Shown here: piece by piece, positions 7,733 through 27,628 of the stretch
Position numbering within the stretch: the stretch's first letter is position 1
How the letters are laid out: every line of letters begins with the position of its first letter
NCBI GenBank assembly: GCA_963815885.1
Contig: CAWFIM010000003.1
Coordinates: 196,234-260,233, forward strand
Origin: an uncultured Solirubrobacterales bacterium
GTDB taxonomy: Bacteria > Actinomycetota > Thermoleophilia > Solirubrobacterales > 70-9
Direction: 5' to 3'
Length of the DNA: 64,000 nt
Notes under the pieces: generated by a model
Database searches by the model: none
Told to the model about the DNA's origin: nothing
The model's input: the letters and a program-made list of their open reading frames with translations, nothing else
Program-made: the position numbers and the translations under genes

Positions 7733-8906
7733 ATGATCTTCGAGACCCCCACCTTGGACGACGACGAGCGCGCGGTGCTCACGCTCCTGTCGGAACAGCG
7801 CACGGACCTTCGAGAGCGCGTTGCGGAGCCGAGGCGCTGGAACGGCAGCTTGCGCCGCATGGCATTCGCGCGGGCCGTGCAGGGCTCCAACAGCATCGAG
7901 GGCTACAACGCCTCGCTCGACGACGTCGTCGCCGCCGTAGAGGGGGAGCCGACGCCCGACACCGAGGAGGAGACTCGGCTCGCGCTTGCCGGATACCGGG
8001 ATGCGATGACCTACGTCCTGCAAGTCGCGGACGACGAGACCCTCGCGATCGACGAGGGTCTGCTCAAGAGCCTGCATTTCATGATGCTCAGGCACGACCT
8101 CTCGAAACGGCCCGGCCGGTGGCGCCCCGGAGCGACCTACATCCACCACGGAGCGACCGATGAGATCGTCTACGAAGGACCGGCGAGCGACAAGGTCCCG
8201 GGTTTGATCGCCGAGCTTGTCCAGAGCCTCACCGAGGACGAGAGCCCGGTGGTGGTCAAGGCCGCGATGGCCCATCTCAATCTGGCGATGATCCACCCGT
8301 TCAGCGACGGCAACGGCCGCATGGCCCGCTGCCTGCAAACGCTCGTCCTCGCCCGCGACCGAGTCATCGCACCTGTCTTCTCCAGCATCGAGGAGTTCCT
8401 CGGTCGCAACACCGAGGCCTACTACGGGGTGCTCGAGGAGGTTGGCGCCGGCGGTTGGCATCCGCAGCGCGACGCGCGTCCATGGTTGCGATTCTGCCTA
8501 CGCGCCCACTACCTCCAGGCGACGACCACGATGCGCCGCCGCGAGGAGATTCGAGCGGCTCTGGGTCGGCTGCCTGGAGCTGGCGGAAGCTCACGGACTG
8601 CCCGAACGATGCGCCGCCGGCCTGATGGATTTGACCTTTGGCCTGCGACTCCGGAGGGGCACCTACCAATCCTCGGTCGAGACCGCGACCGGCGGGGAGA
8701 TCAGTGACCTGACGGCGTCCAGGGACCTGAAATCACTGGTCGACAGCGGCATGGCCGAGGCGATCGGCGAGCGCCGCGGTCGTTACTACCTTGCCGCCGC
8801 CCCCTTGACCGATCTGCGAGCGAGAGTCAGGGGGGAAAGGCCGGCGAAATCGGATGACGATCCGTTCGAGATCGTGCGCTCGCGCCGTCAGCCCAGACTC
8901 GCCTGA
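7733..8906 (+). pseudogene. Class II Fic-family AMPylase with C-terminal winged-helix domain, +1 frameshift
   Basis: Contains the HPFSDGNGRMAR Fic motif and the N-terminal inhibitory motif SNSIEG. The C-terminus (ERLWVGCLELAEAHGLPER...ISDLTASRDLKSLVDSGMAEAIGERRGRYY) continues in the frame of ORF 8442..8906. The span is 1174 nt (3n+1). Confidence 0.8.
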
Positions 8907-8968
8907 CGGCTATTTGCCGAGCCCGGCATAGCTTGATCGTGAACTTCGACGCTAGCGACCGCCCGGAC

Positions 8969-9187
8969 CTATAGACCGTTGCGCGGATCCTTTGGCTCGT
9001 CGCTATGCCACCAGATACCACCGAAAAACACCCCGAACTCGATCAGTAGCGGAAAGACGAAAATTGCGAAGAACAAGACGTAGTCGAGAGCCACTTTGAG
9101 ATGATATCGCGCATAGGGGCGCTCCGAGGAAACGGAGCGCCCGCATTGCCACGACCTACCAAGTGCTCTTGTTTGCGGGAACCCCAT
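8969..9187 (-). CDS. Hypothetical small membrane protein
   Basis: ORF-track entry with one clear hydrophobic helix (VLFFAIFVFPLLIEFGVFFGGIWW), lying in the lower-GC islet. I see no homology. Confidence 0.3.
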   Translation of the reverse strand: MGFPQTRALGRSWQCGRSVSSERPYARYHLKVALDYVLFFAIFVFPLLIEFGVFFGGIWWHSDEPKDPRNGL

Positions 9188-9241
9188 CCCCGTCCGCGTG
9201 AACGTACGCCCTAGTAAGAGTCACTGTCCAGAACGCTTACA

Positions 9242-9478
9242 TCACGCGCCGAGACCTGCACCACCACTGATCCAGGGTACTGACCACGCCGCTTTGCGCG
9301 CCGCAAGCTCGGACTCGGGGAATGCCGTCACGAACTTTCGTAGCAGGAACCGCCGCCTCTGCACAACATCCACCACCCGCCCCGTCTCGGCGACTTCCTG
9401 AGCCCACTGAACGGCCTCGTCGAGATTATCGAACGCTTCTTGCCACCGCCCATCAAAGCCAACCTCATACGTAGCCAT
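9242..9478 (-). CDS. Hypothetical protein
   Basis: I chose the internal start MATYEVGFDGRWQEAFDNLDEAVQWAQEV... so that it does not overlap the upstream gene. No recognisable family. Confidence 0.35.
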   Translation of the reverse strand: MATYEVGFDGRWQEAFDNLDEAVQWAQEVAETGRVVDVVQRRRFLLRKFVTAFPESELAARKAAWSVPWISGGAGLGA

Positions 9479-9510
9479 CGTCAGGAACTTGAGGTGGATC
9501 ATCTCACCTC

Positions 9511-10578
9511 TCAGCACTCAATCCGCCCCGCCTCGCGACCCGGACCGGGCTGCCAAGCTACGCCGAAAAACGCGACATCAAGCGACGGGCGCAAGACAAA
9601 ACCCAAGCAGCTCCCATCAGCATTCACCTGCATCACTGCGCTGCCATATCCCAGTTCTTCAGGTTCCAGCCATTCCGGCAGGTAACGCACGAAAGCCAAG
9701 CGCTCTCCCGACGGATCCCAACTCTGGGAGTAATCGCTTCCCGGGCTGCTGGTCACCCGTCGCAAGCCACCGCCGCCCGACCTGACCGTAAAGAGATCGC
9801 TCCTCGATTCCGACTTTCCACCACGTCGGCGAACGTTTCGCCATCGTACAAACGCCACTCTGCTGCCATCCGGCGAATACACAGGATCGGCTGCCCGGCG
9901 CAAGAACACAGATGTCCTCCCGCTCGCCAGGTCTATCCTCACCACGCTCCACGATCCGCGCCGAGGAAAGCGGCTCGCCAGCAGATCCTCCCCGTCCGGA
10001 GAAAACGACCCGGCATACATCCAAACGCCGTTGCGCTCGGGCGTTATGCGCCGCGCGGAGCCACCGAACACGTCAACGGCCCAAACACTCGCGCCACTTC
10101 TCACAAGTTCCTTCTTCCCGCGGCCGTTCACCCGAGATCGGAGCCGATAGCGCGTGAAGAAGACCGTCCGACCATCGGGGGCGAACTTGGGTTCATCCGC
10201 GCCACGGGTCCCCTTTAACGGCCTCAACTCAGACCCATCGGACGAACTGACGTACAGTCGCACTGCCCGTGGGCCCTCATCCAACCTCCCCGAAAGCGCC
10301 ACAAATACGACCATCGATCCATCCGGCGACCAAGAAGGCAGCGTGAATTCTTCGGGGAGCGGCCTCTCCTTCGGACCGCCCCCCGCCAGCCGCAGCGGCT
10401 GGGCACCGGTCTCGTCCACCGTCGTTAAGTCGAACCGATACGGGAAAAGCGTGTTCTCCACCACTGCTAGGCGCGGGCCGTCCGGTCCTACCAATGCAAA
10501 CGCAGAACTCGAAACGAGCGATGCCAAGGTAAGCGCAACGGACGCCCACATCAAAAATCGAGCTATGCGGCCAGCCAC
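9511..10578 (-). CDS. Secreted TolB-like beta-propeller (PD40/WD40-like repeats)
   Basis: Signal peptide MAGRIARFLMWASVALTLASLVSSSAFA, followed by repeated SPDG/APDG blades (WSPDGSMVVF, FAPDGRTVFF, FSPDGEDLL, YSPDGSRVAF, WDPSGERLAF). Confidence 0.65.
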   Translation of the reverse strand: MAGRIARFLMWASVALTLASLVSSSAFALVGPDGPRLAVVENTLFPYRFDLTTVDETGAQPLRLAGGGPKERPLPEEFTLPSWSPDGSMVVFVALSGRLDEGPRAVRLYVSSSDGSELRPLKGTRGADEPKFAPDGRTVFFTRYRLRSRVNGRGKKELVRSGASVWAVDVFGGSARRITPERNGVWMYAGSFSPDGEDLLASRFPRRGSWSVVRIDLASGRTSVFLRRAADPVYSPDGSRVAFVRWRNVRRRGGKSESRSDLFTVRSGGGGLRRVTSSPGSDYSQSWDPSGERLAFVRYLPEWLEPEELGYGSAVMQVNADGSCLGFVLRPSLDVAFFGVAWQPGPGREAGRIEC

Positions 10579-10605
10579 CCTAGAATCCTACCTTCGCAAT
10601 CGACT

Positions 10606-10914
10606 CTAATGTGGGGGCAATGCTGGCGGTGGGATACAAAGGCGACTCTCTCCTCGGCGTAAACGCATCGACGAAGCAAAGAACGTGTACCTCCCCCGAA
10701 GTGGAGTTCGGCATTGAGAAGAGCGGCTCACTGCGCCGGTTGGCGAAGCCTTACGAACGTCGCTCCAGCTGCTTCTCCCTACGGTACTCCAGAAAAGCTG
10801 GGGTAGATCAGCGTGTCCGTCAAAGCGAGGGCACTCCAAGCTGTTCGTCACCCCGTCCTGGGACTGAGTGGCGACCATGTCGTTGGCGAAGTAGTTCGTG
10901 CTCAGCGCCGTCAT
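10606..10914 (-). pseudogene. Orphan RHS-core remnant
   Basis: Only the first 24 or so codons (LSTNYFANDMVATQSQDGVTNS) match the main RHS protein ([22 protein letters not shown]). The rest has no RHS character in any frame. Confidence 0.5.
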
Positions 10915-10945
10915 TGCTTTGCAGGTGGCCAGCCAGTGGCGCTGC

Positions 10946-11185
10946 TCATTCGTCGTGATCGTCCACGTTTCGATTCGCTCGCTCGGTTTCCGCTCGGTAT
11001 CGCATCAAGCCCAAGGCCGCGGCGATCCCGCCTCCGACAGGCAGCACCCAGTGTCCCACTACCTGGGTGACGACCAAGATCCCGCTGGTGATCATGAAAG
11101 CCAGCGCGAAGAGCCATATCGTCACTTCGAGGCGCGTCCACCGCCGATTCCGTAGATAGCCAGGCTTATTCACCCGACGCTTCAT
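10946..11185 (-). CDS. 79-aa two-TM protein, candidate RHS immunity protein
   Basis: MKRRVNKPGYLRNRRWTRLEVTIWLFALAFMITSGILVVTQVVGHWVLPVGGGIAAALGLMRY... Its ATG lies 11 nt after the RHS stop. The ORF-track entry 10946..11422 overlaps the toxin gene, so I trimmed it. Confidence 0.5.
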   Translation of the reverse strand: MKRRVNKPGYLRNRRWTRLEVTIWLFALAFMITSGILVVTQVVGHWVLPVGGGIAAALGLMRYRAETERANRNVDDHDE

Positions 11186-11196
11186 GACATCTGGAC

Positions 11197-14100
11197 CTAA
11201 CATAAGCCCGCCAAGTCGCCCGCACCGGTTCCAGCAGCGAAGATACCTACAATGAAAGATGCGCCACCGGTTACGGGAGCCAGCGCAAGCCCAGTCGCCG
11301 CGACGCCCGAGCCCCACGCTATCCAACCGCAGGCATGCGCATCCTCTGATCCAAGCTGCGCTTCTCCTGCCGTTGCTTTCTCCGCCCTTTGCTGCACTTC
11401 CGTAATTTCTTGAGCATGCCACTTATTTACTTTGTTTTGGATGCGTTCGAGAAAATTGGGGGCGTGTTCCAGGTAGTGCAAGAAGCGTTCGGCGCCACGC
11501 TGGCTATTGAATTTCGTCACGATCGCACCCCTATTGTTCGCCCTGCGGGCAGCCTGCCTAATCGACGCGGGAGTCGGAGGACCGTAGCATTTCTTATGCC
11601 CAGGATGAGCACATTCCCCAGTTAGATCGAACCCGTTGATCGGGTCCTGATTCGCGTAGTCATACGCATTAGCCGCCCCTCCCATCACAGGATCGGGGGT
11701 CAAGAACCGCCCGATCTGCGGCACGTAACTCCTCGCCCCCATCTGAATCACGCCCGAGGCGAGTTCAGTACGCCGCTGCTTGCCTCCAAGCCACCCATAC
11801 CGGCCCGCGCTGCCAGAGGTGGGATTCCCGAACTCGTCATAGCCGAAGGTTTTTTTCAAGCTCGTAACCAGCGGACTGATCGCCGCGGTGGCGGCCACAT
11901 CACCGTGCAAGTTGGTCAGCTGGAGGGTGATTTCTGAGCCGCTTTCCTGCACGGCGGCGAGTTCCCCGCCGATCCCGGTGATGTTGCGGGTCCAGCTACC
12001 GCCCCGTTCGGTCCAGGCCGGAGAGTCCGATGCGTTGTCGTAGTGGAAGACTTCATAGCCTTCCAGGCCGCCACCGCCCTGCAAGCGCTGTCGCTGGCGA
12101 AGAGAGGCGTCGAGCTGGAAGGTGTTCGTCACTCCGTTCTGGGACTGGCTGGCGACCATGTCGTTGCCGAAGTAGCTCGTGCTCAGCGTTTTGCCGCCGG
12201 CGTAGGCGGCCGGCAGGCTGGTGATCCGCCCGAAGTCGTCGTAGGCGATGCCGGTTGCTTCGAGGCGGTCGGCTTTGTCGTATTTGTAGGTTTGGGTCGT
12301 GCCTCCCGACCCGGCGCAGACGCCGCCGAGTTCGGGGGCCCGGGTCGTCTTCGAGGTCCGATTGGAGTCCTTGTCGTATGCGTAGACGCGCGTCGTGCAG
12401 CTTCCTCCCGTAGGAGTTTCCTGCGCTGAGAGAAGGCGGCCGGCATTGTCGTAGCCGTAGCGGTCGGTGCCGAGGGTTCCGCTTTCGGCGAGGATCTGCC
12501 CATAGATCGAGCGTTCCAGGCCGAAATCGAGCCAGGTGCAACTGGCCCCGCAGGAGCTTGACTTCGTGTAGGTGAGGTGGACCGGTTCCCCGGCGGGGTC
12601 GAAGGTGGTTTTCACGGTCAGGCCGTCGGGAAGACCGCGTTCGACCAAGTTGCCGTCGGCGTCATAGCTCGCCGTGAAGACCCCCGCCGCGGAGTCTTCG
12701 AGTTCCACCGGCAGACCGGTTACCGAATCGTATTTGAGCGTCTGGCTTCCTTTGTTGTCGGTCACCGAGACCGGGCGACTCAGGAGGTCATAGGTGGTGC
12801 TCGCTTTGTTGCCGTCAGCGTCTTCGTAGGAAGTGGGCCGCCCGAGCGAGTCGTAGGTGCTGGTCGTCGCCTGTTTGTCAAAGCCGGCGCATTCTTCGTG
12901 TTCTTCGTCACAGACGAAACGCTGGACGTTCGGCAGCCCGAGAGCTGCGCTGTACTGCGTTTCCGTCTTCGGGATCGGTGCGCCGCCGCCTTCGATCAGC
13001 TTGGTCGTCTGGCGCCCTGCTGCGTCGTAGGTGAGCTTGGTCACGCGCGCCCCTTCGTCGTGCCCGCCGATGCTTTCCTTGACTTTCAGCGGCTCGCCGA
13101 GCTGGTTGTAGGAGAGGACTTCTTTGACGGGGAGGTCGGGAAGTCCCGGGGCTCCAGGCTGAGCGGCTGGCAACACCTTGCAGGGAAGGCCCGCGTAGGC
13201 GGTGCTTTCGCAACTGGGGAATTCCGTTTCTTTTTTGGCGGTGTAGTAGACGGTCTTCGTGGTCCCGGCGCCGCCGCCTTCGGGGTTGGAGGGCTGGCGC
13301 TGTTCGGTCGGCAGGCCGGTCGTTTTGTCATAGACGGTCACCGACTTGATGTTGAGCGCTTCGGGGTTTTCCCCCGCGGGGTCGATGATGGTTTCGGTCG
13401 GCTGGAGGAGCGTCCAGTCGTAGTGGGTTTCGGTGGTCCGCTGATCGGCGTCTTCGCCCTGGCCCGGGATGCTCGCTGCGGAGGTTTCCTTGGTAGGCAG
13501 ATGCGGCTTCGGGTTGCTCGCCGACCAGTTCCCAGGATTGTCATAGAGCACGACCCTGTGCAGGCGCGCTTCCGCCGTCCCGCCGGCGGAGAGGGTGACC
13601 TGATGCAGCGGCCCCCATTCCTCCTGCATCTCGGTCCCGTCGGAGGAATAGGTCCGATGGGTGTCGAGCTGCGCCGCCCGCGTCGCGGTTTCCCCGGCGG
13701 GGGCGGCGAGAGCCCGCAGCCGGTTCTGGGCGCTCAGTTCCCGCACGACGTTGCCGAACTGATCGGTTTCGCTCGTGCTTATCGAGGCGGCCGAGGTTCC
13801 CGCCCCGGCGGGCGTGGCGGTGTTGACGTTCATGCCGTCGGAGTCCATGTAATAGACGGTCGCCCGGGCGTAGCTCGAGGGCGGGCTTGAGGGCACTTCG
13901 GTAGGCGGGAAGATCGCGGTCGCGTCGACCGGGATGTCCTGCTGGCCCCATTTGGCGATCGTTGAGGGACTGAGGTCATATGGCGCGCCGCTGCCGCTGA
14001 GCGGCACCCCGTAGGCGATCGTCGTCTTTGCGGTCGCCGGGGAGGCAAGGAGGCTCGGGCGCTTTGCCACAACGAGCCGCCCTGCTTCTTCCTCTTCGTC

Positions 14101-16842
14101 GGCGAAGCCGTATTCGAGCGTCCAGGGCTGCTGGCCCGGAGGCGTGATCGTTTTCAGCTGGCCGGTGGCGGTGTAGGAGTAGGTCTCTTCCAGCGCCGGG
14201 GAGATGCGGGGGTCCCAGGCTGCGGAGAGAAATCCTTCGGGGTTGTAGACGTAGCGCGCGACTTCCCAGTTTTTCTGCACCCCTTCAGAGGGGCCGTAGA
14301 AGCTGATGGAGGTCAGCCGGTCTCCGTAGGCATACGTCGTGTAGGTGAACTTCAGGGATTTGCACCCGAACGTCGTCAGCGGCGAGGTTTCGCAGTTGAT
14401 CCCGGGTGGCGTCGGCGCGACGATCGTGTCCAGCCGCTTCTTCACCAAGTCGTAGTTCAGGCGCGAGAGGTTGCCCGAGCCGCCGAGCTGGGAGACCGAG
14501 ACCGGCAGGTATTCGCTGCCGCCGCTGCTGTTGGCAAAGGTCGTGCGTTCGCCTTCGGGAGTCGCCAAGACCAGCTGGCCGGAGCCGTTTTTGATCAGGC
14601 CGTAGCCGGCGAGTTCGGGCGGGGTGATGAAGCTTTCGCCCTGCTTTTCGAAGGCGATTTCGGCGCCTTCGGTCGTTTTGAGCAGAGCGTAGGCGTAGCT
14701 GAAGGTGACGGTTTCTTCTTCTTCGTAGGATTCCGTTTCTTCGACGATCTTGGCGCTTGCCCAGGGGCTGCCGCCGGCCATTTCCATCGCCCCGCTCGGT
14801 TCCCAGCCCGGTCCGAGGACTTTCTTCATTTCCCTTTGGTAGGGGGATTCGTTGTCCTTGTCCGGGATTTTGCTCAGGTTCACCCCGCGGGAGTTGAAGG
14901 AGCGCGAGAAGCCGAGCGGGCTTTTGAAGGCCGGGATCGTGGCGTCGGTTCGGGAGACCGAGAGGTTGCCGGTGAGCAGGTCAAGCGTCCCCGGTCCCAC
15001 TGCCGCGGTCGCGTCTTTCGGTCCCCCGAGGGCGCGGTTGACCTTCGCTTCGACCGGCACGCTCAGGCCGTCCTGGCTGCCCGTGGTGTTGAACAGGGCA
15101 CGGATCTGGATCGTCCCGCCTTTTTTCTGCAACGCGCTCGTCGCGTGGGCGGCGTCGAAGTAGAGCGTTTTGCTCTGTTTGACGCCCGAGACCGCCAGCG
15201 GCCAGCTCACCGCCTGGTTGTTGGCATCGCGAACGAGGTTGGAGGGGATCAGCTCGAAGGGTCCTTTTTTGCCTTCGCGATAGAGGAAGCTGACCCCGGT
15301 AACGCCCGGTTCTGACCAGCCCGCCTGCAACCGCAGCCGCCTCGCCGTCACGGTGCCCTCGCTCGGCAAGGTGACCTTGCTGGAGCTCGGCGCAGCCGCG
15401 TAGTAGGTGAGCGTCAGCTTCGGCCTCGTTTCGACCGGCGAGGTCGAGGAGGAACGGAAGGAGACGTAGCGGCGCGGGCAGACGCCGGCGGATTCGCATT
15501 CCGCCGTCCTGGTCTCGTTGTTCTGCTTGACGACGAGACCTTGATTTTCGATCGAGCCGGCAACCCAGCCGGCCACCAGTTTTCGCAAGCTTTCCGACTG
15601 GAATTCCCACCAACCCGCTTTGCTGTTGAGCGTCTGGGCCAGACCTTCGGAGTTGAAGTCCCCGCCGGGCGTCGTCCAAGGGTGATCAGCATTTCCGGTC
15701 GGCGATTCCCAGTTAAGCGCCGAGCTCCATGACTTCGTGACCCTGCGGGTTTCAAGGCCGGTGGTGTTCTCGGGGGCAGCGGGCGCGTATAGCCCGAGCA
15801 CCGCTTTGCTCACATAGGAGCTCTGGCTCAACGAGCCGCTGTGGTCTGATCCCGCTGGAAAGCGCAGAAACGTGCGAATCGGCTGTTTTTCTATCTGGCT
15901 GTAGGCGACGAGGAGTTCTGAGCCTCCGGTGGTGCCGCACTGGTGCCAGCCTTTGGGAGGCGACGTGCTTCCGAGGTCGCAATCGAGCGTCGAGCCCAGC
16001 ATCGTGATCGTCGGGTCGATCGTTGCCGGCCACTGCCGCGCTGGGTCCGAGAGCCATTCGCTGCTCGCGATGACGCTCAAGATCCACTTGCCTTCTGGGG
16101 CCTGTTCGAGCCCATAGTGCACTGCGCTCGCGGGAGCGGGTAGGCCGCCGCCGCTGTCGGCGATCGTCGGGGCCGGCAAGGTTGCGAAGTCGTTCCCCGC
16201 TTCATCGCGGATCTCGATCGAGCCGTCCTCGGCGAGTTCCGGCGTCAGGTCGCCCGATAGATCAAGCTCGAAGCGATATTCGTTGGGCTGGGAGGAGTTC
16301 TGCAGGACGATGCTCTCCTTGAGCCCGTCGCTGAGGCTCTGCAGCTCGAAGGAGAGGGCGCCGTTCGCGGCTTCATAGGTCGCGGTCGCTCCTTCTACTT
16401 CGGCGGTTTCGCTCGTCGGACCGAGGTAGCGATAGGCAACCCAGCTCCCTTCTTCGGAGAGGCGAACCGGTTCCTGACCCATTTCTTCGGGGAGATGGAG
16501 GTCGAAGGAGTTGGCGCCGTTGGTCACTCCCCCGCCCTGCGCTCCTTCGAGTTCTTCTTCGATGGGTTTCCATTCCCCGTCGGCCGTTTCGTAGTTGACC
16601 GGGGCTGGGAATAATTCGGTCTGTAGCTCTCCGCTCGGGAGCAGGTAGGTGTCCGAGGTAGAGGTGCGCTGGTCTGGCAGCTCGGTGCGCGCTGGCGCTT
16701 CTTCCCCTGCGGGCGGTTCACTCTCACCGCGGGCCACGCCGAGGCGGATGCTCAGGGACAGGCCCGTCATCACGAGCAGGGCGGCAATGAACCAGAAAAT
16801 GCCGCGGGTGATCGGGCGGTGCGCAGCGCTGTGAGATCGCAA
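11197..16842 (-). CDS. Sec-exported DNRLRE-domain / RHS (YD-repeat) polymorphic toxin
   Basis: Many YD repeats ([49 protein letters not shown]) and the RHS core end [17 protein letters not shown]...[12 protein letters not shown] propose a TTG start at 16842, preceded by AGGAGG-aatc and followed by the TM/signal segment [22 protein letters not shown]. The longest ORF reaches 17037. Confidence 0.9.
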
Positions 16843-17131
16843 GATTCCTCCTGAATGTTTTGGCCAAGACCAGAACCCGCGACACTCGCCGCGTACCAGC
16901 CGGGGACAGTGCGCGGCATGACGCAGCGACCCTGCTCCCTCCCTACTCACCGGATGTCTAACAGTCAGCCGATCTTCGTGCGACCTTAGTTTTAATGATT
17001 GTTCATTTTTCCCAGATGAAACCCTTAGCTCGGTCAAAATCGGCTGTCCGAGGCGAGGGTCATTGCTCCCGAAATGTGTGTTCGCCGGAGTTCGATATAG
17101 AGTCCCGGCGAGTCGTCCCGATGATCAGGCG

Positions 17132-18049
17132 ATGTCCTTCATGAGTGCGCCGCGCTCGGCCCCTCGCCTACTCGTCGGGACGTTCGAGCTGTACCTGCGC
17201 TACCCGTTCCTCTTCCTCTTTCTCGCCGCCGGGGTAATCGTCCCCTACGAACTGATCGCACTTACGGCGACCGGCACCGGAGCTTTCTCGCGCACCGATA
17301 CGAGCGCCGGCGCTCAGCTCTTCCTCACCCTGGCCGACTTTGCGCTGATCACCCCGCTGGTCTCGGCACTACACATTCACGCAGTTGCCGAAGTGAAGCG
17401 CGACCAGGAGCCTCGGATCGGTCCCGTCACCCTTCAGGGACTCAGGGTTCTGCCGGTCGTAGCCGCGGCGACGATCGCCTCCTGGCTTGGAATCACGGTC
17501 GGGTTCGCCTTGCTGATCGTCCCTGGGTTGATCCTCCTGCTGCGCTGGGCCGTGGTCGCGCAGACCGCGGCGATCGAGCACGAGGGTTGGCTGCCGGCGC
17601 TGCGCCACAGCGGCCGGCTGACCGCGGGGAACTACGGCCACATCGCAGTCTTCCTCGTCATCCTCTGTGGGATCGCGACCGTGCCGTTCATCATCGGCGG
17701 TATCGCCTTTGGACATCACGGCACCGGGACGGCCTCATTCCTCACCGGACTCGCGATTCGCATCTTCACCGCGTCCTTCACGGCACTGGCGGGGGCGCTC
17801 CTCTATTACGACCTCATGGCGCGCTGGGAGGAGGAACCTCAACCAGCTAGCGCCCAGAGAACTTCCTTCGATCCGCGTGCCCACTCGGACCTCGACCGTC
17901 CCAAGGGCTGGTACGTCGACCCCTCCTCCCCCAGCTCGATGCGGCACTGGGGCGGAAGCGAGAGGCCCGAGTGGAGCAGCCGCACCCGGACTCCCCGGAA
18001 GATCAGGCGGGCCTGGCGAACCGAGGACAAGGATGGGTCGCCTGGATGA
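17132..18049 (+). CDS. Polytopic membrane protein with C-terminal DUF2510-like motif
   Basis: Several TM helices, and the C-terminus GWYVDPSSPSSMRHWGGSERPEW resembles the GWYPDP...RYWDG..W motif. I chose the internal ATG. Confidence 0.55.
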   Translation: MSFMSAPRSAPRLLVGTFELYLRYPFLFLFLAAGVIVPYELIALTATGTGAFSRTDTSAGAQLFLTLADFALITPLVSALHIHAVAEVKRDQEPRIGPVTLQGLRVLPVVAAATIASWLGITVGFALLIVPGLILLLRWAVVAQTAAIEHEGWLPALRHSGRLTAGNYGHIAVFLVILCGIATVPFIIGGIAFGHHGTGTASFLTGLAIRIFTASFTALAGALLYYDLMARWEEEPQPASAQRTSFDPRAHSDLDRPKGWYVDPSSPSSMRHWGGSERPEWSSRTRTPRKIRRAWRTEDKDGSPG

Positions 18050-18070
18050 GCACCGCCTGGCGCTTGTGGA

Positions 18071-19570
18071 TTATTCGCCGAGCCCGGCGATCAGCTTTGC
18101 CGTGGTCAGGTCGCCGGCGGGGCTCGTGCCGAGCGCGAGGTATTCGATCCCCTTCAGGTAGGGCTTCGCCTGGCGGAAGTTCTCGTCGTCGGCGGGGATC
18201 AGGCCGCTCGCCAACTTCAGCGCCTCCGGGCCGTCGGCGAAGCCGCTGATCGGCGCGCCGCCGAGGGCGGCAACCGCTTCCTTGTAGAGCGGCCTAGCGG
18301 CGAGCGACTCGTCCGGCTGGGTGGTGAGCGCCCGGACCGCCGCCGGTAGGCCGTAGGCGATCGCGATCCGCTTCCCTTCGGCGGCGGCGACGATCGGCTT
18401 CGGGCCCAGTTCGTCGCTGCGGATCGAGAAGCCACTGGGCTTGCCCGAGATCGCGGTCACCCCTGGGGTGCCGCTGGCGCGCAGCAGCAGGCCGATGTTG
18501 GAGACCGTGTTGGTCGCTTCCCTCGAGCCGCTGGTCGCGAGCACCACGGCGCCGGCAAGGTCGCTCTTGCCGCTGCCTTCGGCGAAGACCCCGAGGTCGC
18601 CGATCGAGGAGGAGATCTTCTCGACGTCGATCCCGGCTTCCCTCAGGGTGCTCTTGAACTTGTGGGGCGGCACCTCGCCGGGGATGCCGTCAGCGTCGAT
18701 CCGGTCGATCGCTTCGCCGATCCGCGCGCCGAAGTCAGCTGAGGAGAGGGCGAGGGCCGAGTCCGCCGGCAGCGAGCCGAGCAGCTTCGAGGCGTCGCCG
18801 CTGGGCGGGCGCTCGCCGCCGGCGTCGGTGCTGAGGTCGATCTCGAGCTGGTCGGAACCGGGGACGAGGCTGGCGACCGCGGTCGCTTCGTCCGGATCGA
18901 TCCCGGCGGTGTCGAGGAATTGACGGGTTTCGGAGTCGATCGTGTCGCCGGATTGCTGGATCAGCCTGCCGATGTCGACGAAGACGTCGGCGAAGCTGCC
19001 GCTGGAGGCGGCATCGAAGGCACTCGCGAAACTTTCCTCGTCAGCCAGCGATTCGCCTTCGGAGGCGTCGACAATCGCCTTGAAGGTGGCCTTGTCTTCG
19101 GCGACGACAAGGAAATCGCCGACCACCCCGGCGATCGTGCCATCGTCGGACTCGCCCCGCTTGTCGACGAAGGCACGCGCGGCGGCGGCGTCGGTGGTCT
19201 GCACCGCGACGCCGTAGCCGTGGAAGTCGTCGCCGTCGTATTCGTCGAAGAACAGCCCGCCCCTTTCGCCCAGCCACGGCTTCACTTCCTTGTCGAAGTC
19301 GAGCTTTTCGCCCGAGGAGGCGGCCGAGCTTTCGAGTTCGGAGACGATGAACGAGCCGAGGCTGGTGTCGATGCCGCTGATCCGCTCGAACAGCGATTCG
19401 ACGTTCGACTTCTGCGCGCCCTGGGGCTGCATCTCGGCTTCGATGTAGAGGCTCGTCCGGGGCGGCGCCAGCGAGGCAGGATCGGGGGTCGCGCCGCCGC
19501 CTCCACCGCAACCGGCGACGCCGAGGGCGGTGGCCAGCGCGAGGGCCGGGAGGACGAGGCGCGCCTTCAT
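18071..19570 (-). CDS. Lipoprotein (DUF3352-like, tentative)
   Basis: MKARLVLPALALATALGVAGCGG contains a lipobox. I trimmed the ORF-track start at 19732, which would overlap glmS. Confidence 0.55.
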   Translation of the reverse strand: MKARLVLPALALATALGVAGCGGGGGATPDPASLAPPRTSLYIEAEMQPQGAQKSNVESLFERISGIDTSLGSFIVSELESSAASSGEKLDFDKEVKPWLGERGGLFFDEYDGDDFHGYGVAVQTTDAAAARAFVDKRGESDDGTIAGVVGDFLVVAEDKATFKAIVDASEGESLADEESFASAFDAASSGSFADVFVDIGRLIQQSGDTIDSETRQFLDTAGIDPDEATAVASLVPGSDQLEIDLSTDAGGERPPSGDASKLLGSLPADSALALSSADFGARIGEAIDRIDADGIPGEVPPHKFKSTLREAGIDVEKISSSIGDLGVFAEGSGKSDLAGAVVLATSGSREATNTVSNIGLLLRASGTPGVTAISGKPSGFSIRSDELGPKPIVAAAEGKRIAIAYGLPAAVRALTTQPDESLAARPLYKEAVAALGGAPISGFADGPEALKLASGLIPADDENFRQAKPYLKGIEYLALGTSPAGDLTTAKLIAGLGE

Positions 19571-19595
19571 GCAGCGGCGCATCCTGGCGGCGGCG

Positions 19596-21446
19596 TCACT
19601 CGACGGTGACGGTCTTGGCCAGGTTGCGGGGCTGGTCGACGTTGAGGCCGCGGGCGCGGGCGATGTCGTAGGCGAGCAGCTGCAGCGGCAGGATCGCGAC
19701 GATCGGCTGCAGGATCCAGTCGGTCGCGGCAACCTCGATCGTCTCGTCGGCGACCTCGGCGACGCGGCTGTTGCCGGCGGTCACGATCCCGATCGTCTGG
19801 GCTCCGCGGGCCCGCACCTCCTCGACGTTGGAGAGCACCTTCTCCAGCACCGGGCTGTCGGTGGCGACGCAGACGACGGGCGTCGACTCGTCGAGCAGGG
19901 CGATCGGCCCGTGCTTCATCTCCCCCGCCGCGTAGGCGTCGGTGGGGATGTAGGAGACCTCCTTCAGCTTCAGCGCCCCCTCAAGGCAGATCGGCAAGCC
20001 GATGTGGCGGCCGAGGTAGAGGAAGAAGTCCTGCTGGCTGTGGGCGGCGGCGACCGCGCGCACCCCCTCCTCGACGCCGGCGAGGGTCTCCTCGATCTTC
20101 GACGGCAGGCTCTTCATCTCGGCGACCAGCTCGGCGATGCGCTCGGGGGGCAGCGACCCGCGCAGCTCCGCCAGCCGCAACCCGAGCAGGTACATGACCG
20201 CCACCTGGGCGAGGAAGGTCTTGGTCGCGGCGACACCGATCTCCAGCCCGGCGCGGGTGTAGAGGGTCGCGTCAGAGTCGCGGGTCGCCTGGCTTCCCAT
20301 GATGTTGGTCACCGCCAGCACCTTCGCCCCGGCGTCGCGGGCCAAGCGCATCGCCGCCAGCGTGTCGGCGGTCTCGCCGGACTGGGTGATGCCAACCACG
20401 AGGTCGCCGGGACCTACCACCGGATTGCGGTAGCGGTACTCGGAGGCGATGTCCATCTCGACCGGGACCCGGGCCCACTCCTCGATCGCGTAGCGACCGA
20501 CCAGGCCGGCGTGGTAGGAGGTGCCGCAGGCGACGATCACGATCCGCCCCAGGCCGCGAAGGAAGTCGTCCTCGAGCTCGACGGCGGAGAGGTCCACCCC
20601 CTCGTCGCGGGGGAGCCGGTCGGCGATCGTCTCGGCGACTGCGTCGGCCTGTTCGTGGATCTCCTTCAGCATGAAGGTCTCATAGCCGCCCTTCTCGGCG
20701 GCATCGGCGTCCCAGGTCACCTCTTCGGAGGCGCGCTCGATCGGGTTGCCGTCGGTGTCGGTGATCCGCACCTCGCCCGCTTCGATTTCCACCACCTCGC
20801 CGTTTTCGATCGGCACCGCGCAACGGGTGTCGGCGAGGAAGGCGGGGATCGCCGAGGCGAGGAAGGTCTCCCCCTCGCCGACCCCGGCGACCAGCGGGCA
20901 CTCCTTGCGGGCGCCGACCAGGCGCTGGGGCTCCTCGGCGTGCATGGCGACGAAGGCGTAGTGACCGCGCAGGTCGGCGTAGGCGGCGCGGACCGCGGCG
21001 GCGAGGTCGCCGTCGTAGTGGTCGGCGATCAGGTGGGCGACGACCTCCGCGTCAGTTTCGGAGCTGAACTCCTCCCCCTCCGCCTGCAGCCGCTTGCGCA
21101 GGCCGGCGTGGTTCTCGACGATCCCGTTGAGGACGATGTGGACCTGGCCGGAACTGTCGTCGTGAGGATGAGCGTTCTCCTCGGTGACCCGGCCGTGGGT
21201 AGCCCAGCGGGTGTGGGCGATGCCGGTGTGGGACGGAGGCAGGGCGCCAGCGCCGTTCTCGGCCCGCTCGTCGACGGCGGCACGGAGGTTGGCGAGGTTG
21301 CCGACCGCGTGCACGCTCTCGACCTCGCCGTCCTCGAGCAGCGAGAGGCCGGCCGAGTCGTAGCCCCGGTATTCGAGCTTTTCCAGCCCCGCGAGCAGAA
21401 GCTCCTCGCAGGGGCGGCCGCCCACGTATCCGACGATCCCACACAT
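19596..21446 (-). CDS. glmS: Glutamine--fructose-6-phosphate aminotransferase
   Basis: MCGIVGYVG N-terminal nucleophile plus two SIS domains. 616 aa. Confidence 0.95.
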   Translation of the reverse strand: MCGIVGYVGGRPCEELLLAGLEKLEYRGYDSAGLSLLEDGEVESVHAVGNLANLRAAVDERAENGAGALPPSHTGIAHTRWATHGRVTEENAHPHDDSSGQVHIVLNGIVENHAGLRKRLQAEGEEFSSETDAEVVAHLIADHYDGDLAAAVRAAYADLRGHYAFVAMHAEEPQRLVGARKECPLVAGVGEGETFLASAIPAFLADTRCAVPIENGEVVEIEAGEVRITDTDGNPIERASEEVTWDADAAEKGGYETFMLKEIHEQADAVAETIADRLPRDEGVDLSAVELEDDFLRGLGRIVIVACGTSYHAGLVGRYAIEEWARVPVEMDIASEYRYRNPVVGPGDLVVGITQSGETADTLAAMRLARDAGAKVLAVTNIMGSQATRDSDATLYTRAGLEIGVAATKTFLAQVAVMYLLGLRLAELRGSLPPERIAELVAEMKSLPSKIEETLAGVEEGVRAVAAAHSQQDFFLYLGRHIGLPICLEGALKLKEVSYIPTDAYAAGEMKHGPIALLDESTPVVCVATDSPVLEKVLSNVEEVRARGAQTIGIVTAGNSRVAEVADETIEVAATDWILQPIVAILPLQLLAYDIARARGLNVDQPRNLAKTVTVE

Positions 21447-24189: not shown

Positions 24190-24420
24190 CGTGCAAAAAC
24201 CGCGCGGGTCCTCCCACGCGGCCGGGAGGATCATAGCCATCCCGGCATCTATACTGCCGCGCCAGCAATGCCGAATCCCGTCCGGGCAACCGAGCGGGAG
24301 CGGAGGAACCGCAGGGACCAGGCAGGTCCCAGGGGCGAATCGAACGAAAACGTTCGTAGCGCATCTCTTTCAGCGCGAGCCCGACAGCTAACTCCGTAGG
24401 CGATCGAAAGAGAGGGCTGG

Positions 24421-25374
24421 TTGACGCGGAACAAGCTGAGCGCCCGGCGCGGTCTGGCTGGTTGGAAGGTCGTTCTGGCGGCGATCCTCGCGCTGCTCGC
24501 CGTCTTCCCCGGAGCCGCCGCCGCCGCGATCGCGACCGGCGGGGCCGGCACCCCCGGCGCCGCGCCGACGCCGAAGGGCAGCCCCACCGGTGCTGCTGAC
24601 CCGGCGCCGAGCGCCGGCGCGCTCACCCTGCTCTCGGCCGAGGCCAGCCCGCGCAAGAACTTCTTCTTCGGCTACCGCTATCCCCGCTTCGCCTTCGCGA
24701 TCGCCAGCACCCAGCCGCAGAACGACCTTCAGGTCAACGTCGTCAACTCGGCCGGCGAAGTCGTCCGCAGCTTCTTCCGCAACGACGTCGCGCCCGAAGC
24801 GCCGGTCTCGGTGCGCTGGGACGGCACCACCGCCGAAGGCCGCCCCGCCCGCAACGGCCGCTACACCTTCCAGGTGCTCGCCCAGGGCAACACCGCCGCC
24901 GCCCGGCGCGCCACCGCCTCGGTGACGGTGACCGCCGGCTTCGCCCTCTACGGCTACGCCTTTCCGATCCTCGGCGCTCACGAATTCGGCCTCGGCGCCG
25001 GTCGCTTCGGAGCCCCTCGCTCCGGTCACACCCATCAGGGCCAGGACGTGATGGCGGCCTGCGGCACCCCCCTCCTCGCCGCCCGCGGCGGCGTCGTCCA
25101 GTACGCGGGTTACGAGGGCAACGCCGGCAACTACATTGTCATCGACGGCAAGGGCACGCCGAACGACTTCATGTACGCGCATCTGGCCGAACCCTCGCCG
25201 CTGCAAGCGGGCGAAACCGTCCGCACCGGCCAGCCAATCGGCATCGTCGGCGACACCGGCGACGCCACCGCCTGCCACCTGCACTTCGAGATCTGGGGAC
25301 CGCCCGGCTGGTACGAGGGGGGCTCGCCCTTCGATCCGCTGCCGGAACTCGAAAAGTGGGACCGGTACAGCTGA
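24421..25374 (+). CDS. Secreted M23-family metallopeptidase with FlgD-Ig-like middle domain
   Basis: Signal/TM segment, then HTHQGQD (HxxxD) and CHLHFE (HxH). TTG start. Confidence 0.85.
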
Positions 25375-26405: not shown

Positions 26406-26849
26406 TCAGCCCGCGCACCCCTCGCAGCGTCCCCGCAGCACCACGTCGTGCTCGGCAACCTCGAAATCGATGCTCTCCGAGAGCCGGCCGATCGCCTGCT
26501 CGAGGCGCGGGTCCTCGAACAGGACCATACGGCCGCAATCGCGGCAGATCGCGTGGTGGTGATGGTGGCCGTCGGGCTCGACCCGCTCGTAGCCGGCAGT
26601 GCCGCGGCTGACTTCGATCCGCTGCACCAGGCCCAGCTCCTCGAGCTGCTCGAGCGCCCGGTAGACGCTGGCCCGGCCGACCGGCGGCCGGCGGCGGCGC
26701 AGCTCGTCGTCGAGGTCGAGGGCGGTGACCGCGCAGTCATGGCGCGCCAGCGCCTCGATCACCGCCACCCGGGCGCCACCGCGGCGCAGCCCGGCGCTCC
26801 CGAGCGCATCCAGCGCGTGGTCCCGCCAGCCGGCGTCGATCGTGCTCAT
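26406..26849 (-). CDS. zur: Fur-family metalloregulator, probably Zur
   Basis: Winged-helix N-terminus, a His run (GHHHHHAICRDCG) and a C-terminal CEGC. It is divergent from a ZIP transporter gene. Confidence 0.75.
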   Translation of the reverse strand: MSTIDAGWRDHALDALGSAGLRRGGARVAVIEALARHDCAVTALDLDDELRRRRPPVGRASVYRALEQLEELGLVQRIEVSRGTAGYERVEPDGHHHHHAICRDCGRMVLFEDPRLEQAIGRLSESIDFEVAEHDVVLRGRCEGCAG

Positions 26850-26873
26850 GCCGAAATCGTACCGGGTTTAAAC

Positions 26874-26886
26874 GAGATTGAATCTC
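26874..26886. promoter_or_regulatory. Candidate Zur/Fur operator
   Basis: AT-rich palindrome GAGATT-G-AATCTC in the 59-bp divergent zur/ZIP intergenic region. Confidence 0.35.
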
Positions 26887-26908
26887 ATTCAGTGATAGCC
26901 TCCGCGCC

Positions 26909-27628
26909 GTGTCGTTGATCGCGATCCCGCTCTCCGCCCTCGCCGCCCTGGCGACGATGCTGGGTGGGAAGGTCGCGCTGCGCCTCTCCCACACGCTGCC
27001 GACCGTGATCGCCTTCACCGGCGGCGTCGTCGTTGCGGTGGCGCTGTTCGACGTGCTGCCGGAGGGGATCACGAACGTCGGCGACCCGGCGAAGGCAACG
27101 ACGCTGGTCGCGATCGGCTTTCTCGTCTTCTTCTTCGCCGAGCGCGTCCTCGTCCTCCACCACCGCGACCAGCCCGACGAGGCACGCGCACACCACCGGG
27201 TCGGCATTCTCGGCGCGCTCGGGCTCTCGATCCATAGCTTCATCGACGGGCTCGGGATCGGCCTCGCCTTCGGCCTCGACAGCGCCACCGGCCTGCTCGT
27301 CTTCGTCGCCGTGATCAGCCACGACTTCGCCGACGGCCTCAACACCGTCAGCTTCGTCCTCAACCAATCCGGGGATCGTGAGCAGGCGGGTAGATGGCTG
27401 CGGATCGACGCCCTGGCGCCGATATTGGGGGCGGTGGTCGGCTCGCTGCTGACCGTCTCCGACCACACCCTTGGCTACATCCTCTGCCTCTACAGCGGCT
27501 TCTTCATCTACATGGGTGCAACCGACCTGCTGCCCGAGGCCCACGCCGACGCTTCTTGGGCCCGAGTCGCCCTGACCGCCTCCGGTTTCGCACTGATCTT
27601 CGTGATCACCCGCGTCGCCGGCGTCTGA
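26909..27628 (+). CDS. ZIP-family divalent metal transporter
   Basis: 239-aa polytopic protein with HSFIDGLGIG and SHDFADGLN motifs. GTG start. Confidence 0.8.
   Translation: MSLIAIPLSALAALATMLGGKVALRLSHTLPTVIAFTGGVVVAVALFDVLPEGITNVGDPAKATTLVAIGFLVFFFAERVLVLHHRDQPDEARAHHRVGILGALGLSIHSFIDGLGIGLAFGLDSATGLLVFVAVISHDFADGLNTVSFVLNQSGDREQAGRWLRIDALAPILGAVVGSLLTVSDHTLGYILCLYSGFFIYMGATDLLPEAHADASWARVALTASGFALIFVITRVAGV

Follow-up and report, generated by a model that had tools for sequence, protein, structure and literature searches.

To our knowledge, the characterised RHS and WapA tips of Gram-positive bacteria are nucleases. The WapA tips mentioned in one such report target nucleic acids, with those of Bacillus subtilis acting as tRNases and the CT1 tip of Streptococcus suis structurally resembling the nuclease NucB (PMC12704120). 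The pore-forming RHS tip in the literature compared here, Tse5, comes from a type VI secretion system (T6SS) of a Gram-negative bacterium; the tip of the Pseudomonas aeruginosa protein (Tse5-CT) comprises 149 residues and its immunity protein Tsi5 has two transmembrane (TM) segments (PMC9637101). The ionophores of contact-dependent growth inhibition (CDI) combine variable entry domains with a membrane domain that holds a putative glycine zipper, and their immunity proteins (CdiI; 72-100 residues) consist of two helices with both ends in the cytoplasm (PMC11630599). In monoderms, TspA, EsxX and TelE are depolarising glycine-zipper toxins that use type VII secretion (T7SS; PMC12744356). Here, we analyse a 64,000-nucleotide stretch of DNA (the window) from an uncultured Solirubrobacterales bacterium that encodes an RHS/WapA-like polymorphic toxin with an unannotated C-terminal tip, followed by a small open reading frame (ORF; 10946-11185; all features in Table 1). 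The locus is very probably at least a polymorphic toxin/immunity cassette. On balance, we favour the reading that the tip is a WapA-like, Sec-delivered toxin that depolarises membranes, and the 79-residue product of the ORF is, as judged from its sequence, most likely an intramembrane immunity protein that protects the producer.

The RHS core ends in DPVMG-x17-DLTGE, a degenerate motif of the DPxGL-x(17-18)-DPxGL type that is kept across relatives. By analogy, it is presumed to be the aspartyl autoprotease and cleavage site of the core, the role ascribed to DPXGL-(18)-DPXGL in the Tse5 report (PMC9637101). Exactly 138 codons follow (11200-11613, minus strand; stop at 11197-11199), and the TIGR03696 match stops between the last two residues of DLTGE, one residue short of the boundary set in an earlier note made from the sequence alone; the boundary and tip length given there read as stated. 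Third-position G+C content (GC3) falls from 0.80 in the core to 0.565 in the tip (Fisher p = 2.8e-9), and the lowest value of any 138-codon window within the core is 0.70. The switch in codon usage that the note described is real as a drop from core to tip. The note's wording 'exactly at this boundary' goes a little too far, since a single change point fits best 27 codons upstream, near the boundary and not precisely at it.

The note had also called the tip unrecognised, and it stays so. Searches of Pfam and NCBIfam gave nothing at or near their thresholds, and PHROGs and PADLOC gave nothing; sequence searches of the PDB with profiles of four and 35 tips found nothing below E = 0.07, and Foldseek with the 35-sequence tip model found no match in the PDB (best E = 9.4). 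Across these resources there is thus no confident match to any characterised toxin domain. Together with ORF 10946-11185, the tip appears from sequence comparison to form a new, unannotated toxin/immunity family pair that is non-homologous to known ones.

This family is wider than it first seemed. A word-indexed search gave only three relatives of the tip, and the extreme rarity that this implied was discarded when an exhaustive HMMER search with a four-sequence profile raised the count to 39 representative clusters, with E<=1e-10 for 25. The family is nonetheless small, and its members belong to RHS proteins with a Sec signal in genomes of Solirubrobacterales-like bacteria. Wherever upstream sequence is readable, relatives always follow the end of an RHS core, and the match reaches the last residue; the remaining relatives are short C-terminal fragments or have spurious upstream sequence (P0019 and P0022). 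In the species-representative genome set, the four-sequence alignment identified one tip locus, in a metagenome-assembled genome of an uncultured Solirubrobacterales bacterium, and a close relative of the core carries the NCBI name 'Solirubrobacterales bacterium'. An alignment of 35 tip sequences (A4) resolves three parts: a head with two Cys, a helical domain (N-domain) and a hydrophobic tail. Among the 29 tips with a complete N-terminus, 26 contain four Cys, two in the head and two in the tail, and three contain two, in the tail only; the number is never odd, and no head has a single Cys. The two head Cys are spaced by 7-10 residues across the family. An even number of Cys per tip is the expectation for two intramolecular disulfides and suits an extracytoplasmic protein.

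The tail is a hydrophobic hairpin of 37-50 residues across the family. Its last residue is Cys in all 35 relatives that include the tail, and an equivalent of Cys95 is present in 33 of 34 tails, with the degenerate P0002 as the exception; this first Cys sits 31-50 residues before the last residue (mode 42-44). The turn between the two arms follows the pattern P-x-T/S-G-G (P in 27/34, T/S in 32/34 and GG in 27-29/34), and Gly, Ala, Ser and aliphatic residues abound in the arms on either side. The tail sequence and Cys bracket given in the earlier note are present as written, and the bracket lies far beyond chance. The tail is also the sole hydrophobic part of the tip, with Kyte-Doolittle (KD) values of up to 1.86.

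The turn of the tail also recalls a different function. LAPVTGG and APETGG look like LPXTG/LAXTG with some 20 hydrophobic residues behind it. Proteins of the WapA type are associated with the wall, and for S. suis WapA a sortase has been implicated (PMC12704120). The tail might hence be a C-terminal anchor or sorting signal, sortase-like or of the CTERM type, which holds the RHS protein or the tip on the producer surface. This reading is very unlikely. The tail ends in GDLAGLC without basic residues, family ends are acidic or neutral with an invariant Cys, a conserved and Cys-bracketed hydrophobic arm also lies upstream of PxTGG, and no NCBIfam sorting-signal model was matched. Being located after the RHS autoproteolysis site, the tail could not anchor the shell, and the tip behaves as an exchangeable cassette that is inherited along with a mini-protein and also turns up in orphan cassettes. 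The sortase-signal reading of PxTGG was accordingly set aside on three grounds: the missing basic tail, the conserved upstream arm and the position past the cleavage site.

The candidate immunity gene accompanies the tip. Its 79-residue product starts with a basic N-terminus (charge +8), continues with two hydrophobic helices that G-H-W connects and finishes in a charged C-terminal tail; the positive-inside rule predicts a cytoplasmic location for both ends of the hairpin. A homologous ORF with two TM segments, typically of about 75-79 residues, follows the tip in seven of eight loci (the window, L001, L002, L003, L004, L005 and L010), either 11-12 nt after the tip stop or overlapping it. The earlier note had proposed to look in homologous loci for just such a constant partnership of tip and downstream ORF. 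In total, 45 relatives of the ORF product were found (49-139 residues, most 60-100), in which E20, L37, W46, R62 and Y63 are invariant. None of the 45 carries a meaningful annotation, and Pfam, NCBIfam, PHROGs and PADLOC gave nothing usable; a match to Rv2743c/PspM (21 bits vs 27.7) was rejected because it looks like TM composition. Additional orphan ORFs of the two-TM immunity type lie downstream of the cognate one at L005 (10587-10754) and L010 (2120-2347), comparable to immunity-gene arrays. At L006 (7423-8060), the RHS protein P0010 has a shorter tail with a 39-residue Cys loop, and one ORF ends in ...MPYRYRAP..., faintly like the conserved MRYRAE of the immunity family.

The tip is exchangeable. 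A query of the final 210 core residues retrieved 314 relatives, of which the best 120 are 53-83% identical; these are mostly orphan cassettes of about 340 residues that start at ...YFxNDMVA(S/T)QSQ.... These best 120 relatives carry 100 tips of at least 60 residues (99 of them public), which form 29 BLAST clusters, and 19 of the 99 public tips belong to the tip family as defined by the A4 profile. At least 29 tip types on one core end, together with a relic of the core downstream, mark the tip as a swapped module, in line with the earlier note, and not as a fixed part of orthologous RHS proteins. Orphan cassettes comprising tip and ORF occur in L002 and L010. In the syntenic relative L003, at about 830-860, the tip frame is broken in a run of C and the Cys-bracketed tail continues in another frame, reflecting either a pseudogene or a short-read assembly error. 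In the window, the relic is located downstream of the immunity ORF, and its preserved sequence is exactly where public orphan RHS cassettes begin in the core; 70 nt (10838-10907) are 90% identical to 12119-12188, and homology is gone after about 75-95 nt. By its sequence, the relic reads as the scar of cassette turnover, with the rest of a presumed orphan cassette gone.

Such decay raises the question of whether the tip and ORF are themselves a remnant without current function. The core relic adjoins the locus, and degenerate relatives exist, including P0002 without its first tail Cys, L003 with its C-run frameshift and the L002 orphan with a broken core. The copy in the window is intact, however, with a continuous 1881-residue reading frame, all four Cys and an undamaged downstream ORF, and both the tip and ORF families show strong purifying conservation. 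A decaying remnant is therefore the least probable of the alternatives weighed here, and we consider it highly improbable.

Evidence on the site of action comes from other tips on the same core. Among the tips of the best 120 core relatives, 35 of 100 end in Cys, including that of the window; P0121 and P0146, which are among these, do not seem related to the Gly-rich kind of tail. The A4 profile does not match 21 of the 35, most of which have Cys-bracketed, Gly-rich tails behind different N-domains. At least four further families have such tails, of 55-60 residues where measured (P0045/P0110/P0148, P0049/P0093, P0066/P0109/P0139, P0103/P0120/P0123/P0140, P0056, P0079, P0088 and P0113; loci L008, L009 and L010). 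In all three of the other Cys-tailed families checked, a small membrane ORF lies downstream: 51 residues at L010, 60 residues with two TM segments at L009 and 108 residues with several TM segments at L008. The main RHS protein at L009 has a beta-rich tip without such a tail and is followed by a 245-residue ORF without a TM segment. Immunity proteins are usually located where the toxin acts (PMC12669606). Given this, membrane ORFs behind Cys tails, as opposed to a soluble one behind a tail-less tip, suggest that the tail is the active part and the membrane its site. The earlier note had suggested a membrane-acting effector from the tail alone; the proposal is still indirect, and it gains independent support from the two-TM ORF and from the ORFs downstream of other tips.

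The part of the tip that precedes the tail offers the main competing explanation. In the A4 alignment, the N-domain follows the pattern (R)ANK-xx-I-xxx-F...AExF-xxL...KxxxW-A...E-Q-xAA. AlphaFold2 with 35 sequences modelled tip residues 11-80 at a pLDDT score (predicted local distance difference test) of 73-88, with helices at 15-27, 38-49 and 54-84; an earlier model from four sequences (pLDDT 46) was discarded, and with 35 sequences the N-domain alone is usable. Residues 1-94, covering the head loop, N-domain and linker, carry a net charge of +5, and the 100-degree hydrophobic moments are high for helices 15-27 and 38-49 (1.5-1.9) and weaker for 54-84 (0.88). The head is not peculiar to this family, as the linker C-x7-C-xGPP(T/S)P also occurs on tips with otherwise unrelated toxin domains (P0056, P0073, P0096, P0119 and P0141). 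A linker common to unrelated tips suggests that the recombination unit, or a functional 'pre-toxin' linker, reaches beyond the RHS core boundary.

A confidently folded, well-conserved domain with an RRANK motif could be the toxin itself, directed at a cytoplasmic or envelope target, with the hairpin serving as a translocation or entry device, the role proposed for the glycine-zipper segment of the T6SS DNase Tde1. The recurrence of the tail type on different N-domains is what a shared delivery module would produce, and a T6SS effector that needs a glycine zipper for its translocation has been described (PMC10240207). However, the N-domain comprises just three helices of about 70 residues in all and has no invariant polar or catalytic residues across the 35-sequence alignment, in which A77 is the sole position to reach 90% and most conserved positions hold hydrophobic residues. 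No enzyme family is matched by the tip. The linked protein is almost wholly embedded in the membrane and has no soluble domain with which to bind a soluble toxin, and a membrane ORF follows each Cys-tailed family examined whatever its N-domain, with a soluble one after the tail-less tip. Action through the N-domain is thus unlikely, though it deserves more weight than the other alternatives.

The tail fold is less clearly defined than the tail sequence. The earlier note had emphasised stacked GxxxG/A repeats, and motifs of this kind are present, including a zipper motif G128xxxG132xxxG136 and two further matches to (G/A/S)xxxGxxxG or GxxxGxxx(G/S/T). Their number is no higher than in shuffles that preserve the tail composition (52% G/A/S): the observed two GxxxG, 13 small-xxx-small and three zipper patterns are reached by 77%, 20% and 59% of shuffles, respectively. 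Stacked GxxxG was consequently dropped as evidence in itself. The tail could also act in the membrane as beta-hairpins that form a small beta-barrel or amyloid-like pore, a variant of the depolarising toxin that would fit the strands drawn at 106-113 and 120-127 in the first AlphaFold run, the lag-2 periodicity of small residues and the alternation of small and hydrophobic residues at 126-137. Confidence is low for the tail in both models, the deeper alignment instead places helices at 96-106 and 122-134, the hydrophobic moments show no preference for 160-180 degrees, and the weak echoes described below are all to helical pore formers. We consider this beta variant distinctly unlikely.

The sole sequence echoes of the tip are to alpha-helical pore formers (ApoL, Ssp4, AopB, NheL1 and MakE). 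For ApoL (PF05461), residues 47-128 of the relative P0008 align to profile positions 53-129 with 25.8 bits against a threshold of 25.9; E<0.1 was obtained in just three of 35 tip members, with no match for the window tip, and the threshold was not reached. The T6SS pore-forming effector Ssp4 (NF053808) gave E = 0.0056 and 15.9 bits against a cutoff of 300, over the hydrophobic stretch only, and the PDB echoes of the tip profile, AopB, NheL1 and MakE, have E = 0.075-0.47. As they are sub-threshold and perhaps compositional, these echoes serve as leads and not as grounds for membership.

Several observations weigh against a membrane-depolarising tip of the form proposed. In the tail, GxxxG shows no enrichment over composition, conservation of small residues is most strongly autocorrelated at lags 2 and 7 and not at 4, hydrophobicity is moderate (17-residue KD maximum 1.86), and the AlphaFold2 models disagree, with pLDDT <50 in both and strands from four sequences but helices from 35. 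All echoes of pore formers fall under family thresholds and could be compositional. The N-domain is the best-folded and best-conserved part of the tip and could itself be active. Co-divergence with the two-TM ORF across five loci is similar for the tail (rho 0.71) and the N-domain (0.67); with so few loci and no advantage for the tail, this co-variation was abandoned as a sign of direct contact, and it shows only that tail, N-domain and ORF move as one cassette. At L006, no intact membrane ORF lies downstream of the tip. Finally, the signal peptide of the RHS protein in the window was judged by eye and hydropathy only.

The carrier is consistent with export. The RHS gene starts with TTG at 16842, with AGGAGG 4 nt before it, and the public gene call for the identical contig likewise has a length of 1881 residues. 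The mechanical ORF (11197-17037) opens further upstream, at TTG 17037, and its first 46 codons have a GC3 of 0.48. Full-length relatives with a tip of this family (1844-2158 residues) have clearer Sec signal peptides of the AxA type. The delivery features named in the earlier note are all confirmed: an N-terminal hydrophobic signal, a DNRLRE domain and the absence of T6SS or T7SS genes among the 30 neighbouring ORFs examined across the window. A DUF6531 match is weak (20.8 bits vs a cutoff of 24.1), and the Pfam and NCBIfam matches of the RHS protein include no PAAR or LXG domain and no LysM or other wall-binding domain of the kind expected in the WapA subtype. The ORFs scanned in the vicinity of the RHS gene include neither a SecF-like nor a sortase gene. 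By its sequence, the carrier appears to have the architecture described for the Sec-exported WapA of S. suis, with a Sec-type signal, DNRLRE, weak DUF6531 and RHS repeats (PMC12704120).

If the tip is a membrane-depolarising toxin, the RHS shell would fold outside the cell after Sec export, and the DPVMG-x17-DLTGE aspartyl-protease motif would free the tip inside the shell by cutting after DLTGE. Both disulfides would form in the oxidising extracytoplasmic space. At a neighbouring cell, the basic, amphipathic N-domain may dock to the anionic membrane or to one of its proteins, in the manner of the variable entry domains of CDI ionophores. The stapled hairpin would then enter the cytoplasmic membrane from outside and oligomerise via its conserved small-residue faces, and the resulting ion leak would dissipate the membrane potential. 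In the producer membrane, the 79-residue hairpin would have cytoplasmic ends and a three-residue outer loop (GHW), and may block insertion or oligomerisation by packing its VGGGIAAALG helix on the toxin hairpin.

Table 1. Features of the RHS toxin locus in the window.
Feature	Position	Strand	Remarks
RHS/WapA-like polymorphic toxin gene, 1881 residues	11197..16842	-	RHS_repeat PF05593 (E=1.4e-17, 64 bits, cutoff 22); YD_repeat TIGR01643 (53.2 bits, cutoff 15.8)
N-terminal Sec-type signal or signal-anchor (putative)	16729..16842	-	basic n-region and hydrophobic stretch of ~18 residues, KD maximum 2.27
DNRLRE domain	15406..15879	-	NCBIfam NF033679, E=3.9e-13, 49.8 bits (cutoff 34)
RHS repeat-associated core, ending DPVMG-x17-DLTGE	11617..11841	-	TIGR03696, 48.8 bits (cutoff 32.5), model positions 1-75 of 76
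Tip head: Cys-x7-Cys loop and GPPTP linker, 15 residues	11569..11613	-	
Tip N-domain: cationic amphipathic helical, ~70-75 residues	11359..11568	-	RRANxxxAIVxxF...AERFLHYLE...KVNKW
Tip tail: 44-residue Gly/Ala-rich hydrophobic hairpin	11200..11331	-	central P-V-T-G-G turn; closed by Cys95 and C-terminal Cys138
Candidate immunity gene, 79-residue two-helix membrane hairpin, basic N-terminus	10946..11185	-	11 nt after toxin stop
Relic of the 3' end of an RHS core, then unrelated sequence	10815..10908	-	MTALSTNYFANDMVATQSQDGVTNS...

The locus as a whole differs in composition from its surroundings. From about 8900 to 19700 of the window, G+C is 0.53-0.65 against a window mean of 0.70, and neighbouring housekeeping genes have a GC3 of about 0.90-0.94, above that of the RHS core. 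On the basis of this low G+C and the lower GC3 of the core, the whole locus looks like an inserted island between yjeF/CBS/alr and glmS/glmM. A gene for a Fic/DOC-family protein (7733-8707, plus strand; PF02661, E=2.4e-15) lies just upstream of the low-GC edge of the island and is followed by a dip in G+C to 0.555 at 8900-9200. Just downstream of the toxin-immunity pair, 9511-10578 (minus strand) encodes a PD40/TolB-like beta-propeller protein with a signal peptide (PF07676, E=3.1e-19), an arrangement kept in the related contig L003 (the observation covers L003 and L007). On the upstream side, the RHS gene is directly preceded by a 328-residue ORF without a Pfam match (17063-18049, plus strand) and then by a gene for a DUF3352 protein (18071-19732, minus strand; E=2.1e-13). 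Further along are ordinary genes unrelated to the tip, namely an M23 peptidase with a FlgD Ig-like domain (24400-25374, plus strand) and a divergent pair of a Fur-family regulator and a ZIP zinc transporter (26406-27628).

The relationships among the Cys-tailed tips invite a broader view. By hhalign, comparison with other Cys-tailed families gave a probability of 42% for a tail-to-tail match (A7) and of 83% for the head/RRANK region (A8), and a superfamily of such tips is plausible from these sequences. It is conceivable, though we have considerable doubt, that the Cys-closed hairpin is a self-sufficient, bacteriocin-like pore module that Solirubrobacterales have fused to RHS carriers in many versions, with varied docking N-domains and mini immunity proteins of its own; with at least four sister families, this would amount to a large superfamily of disulfide-stapled ionophores of monoderm actinobacteria. 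The superfamily might also be distantly related to the core of helices and hydrophobic hairpin in pore formers of the ApoL/colicin type.

The family pair, with 39 toxin clusters and 45 immunity relatives, comes from poorly studied soil actinobacteria and has a simple design built on a stapled hairpin of 44 residues. Should the hairpin suffice to make ion channels, it would rank among the smallest polymorphic-toxin warheads known. In that case, it would also be a convenient model for the way in which a hydrophobic toxin gets through the Sec channel and membrane of its producer without harming it, and it could supply peptide-sized antibacterials that act on the membranes of monoderms. Many 'hypothetical' RHS ends and mini-ORFs in metagenomes could then be annotated as well.

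Among described systems, Tse5-CT and Tsi5 are close to the tip and its partner. In Tse5, as here, a tip of about 140-150 residues without an enzymatic signature follows the RHS autoproteolysis motif (PMC9637101, PMC10684867), hydrophobic and amphipathic helices are combined, a two-TM immunity gene is adjacent, and the RHS shell presumably conceals the hydrophobic cargo. Tse5 differs in its PAAR-like N-terminus and in its export by the H1-T6SS together with VgrG4; the protein analysed here has a Sec signal and a DNRLRE domain, and no T6SS genes were found. A Cys-closed hairpin with a C-terminal Cys is likewise not described for Tse5 in the literature compared here, and the host here is an actinobacterial monoderm. 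At the sequence level, the Tse5 entries in the PDB match the RHS shell only; the 35-tip profile found no Tse5 chain at E<=10 among all PDB chains, in which the presence of the CT fragment is uncertain. The logic of a depolarising RHS tip paired with a two-TM immunity protein is nonetheless the one already characterised in Tse5-CT/Tsi5 (PMC9637101).

The CDI ionophores resemble the tip in having a variable helical N-terminal domain, disulfide-bonded in some CDI groups, in front of a C-terminal membrane domain, and the 79-residue ORF product fits the CdiI pattern of a two-helix hairpin with both ends cytoplasmic (PMC11630599). Their ionophore domain is predicted to be a five-helix bundle, in contrast to the single 44-residue hairpin here; they depend on CdiA/CdiB two-partner secretion in Gram-negatives, and no sequence similarity was found. 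WapA of B. subtilis and S. suis shares with the carrier a Sec signal, DNRLRE, DUF6531 (weak here), RHS repeats, a variable tip, a downstream immunity gene and orphan cassettes (PMC12704120). It differs in its nucleic-acid-targeting tips and in that no wall-binding domain was detected here. In TspA, EsxX and TelE, a Gly-rich C-terminal segment is likewise proposed to insert and oligomerise, and membrane-bound immunity acts against extracellular toxin (PMC12744356). These proteins have an LXG domain and T7SSb export, neither of which was found here, and show no homology to the tip. EsxX additionally needs a soluble cytoplasmic immunity pair, which the RHS shell would make unnecessary. Class II (pediocin-like) bacteriocins are Gly/Ala-rich peptides of about 40-50 residues with a disulfide that includes the last residue and a small membrane-associated immunity protein; in contrast, the tip has no double-glycine leader and no Pfam bacteriocin match, and is fused to an RHS carrier of 1743 residues. 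A membrane toxin borne by an RHS protein and paired with an immunity protein in the membrane is thus of a known kind. What is new, besides the family pair itself, is a Sec/WapA carrier of a probable membrane toxin in a monoderm actinobacterial lineage, and a presumably disulfide-closed hairpin with an invariant C-terminal Cys.

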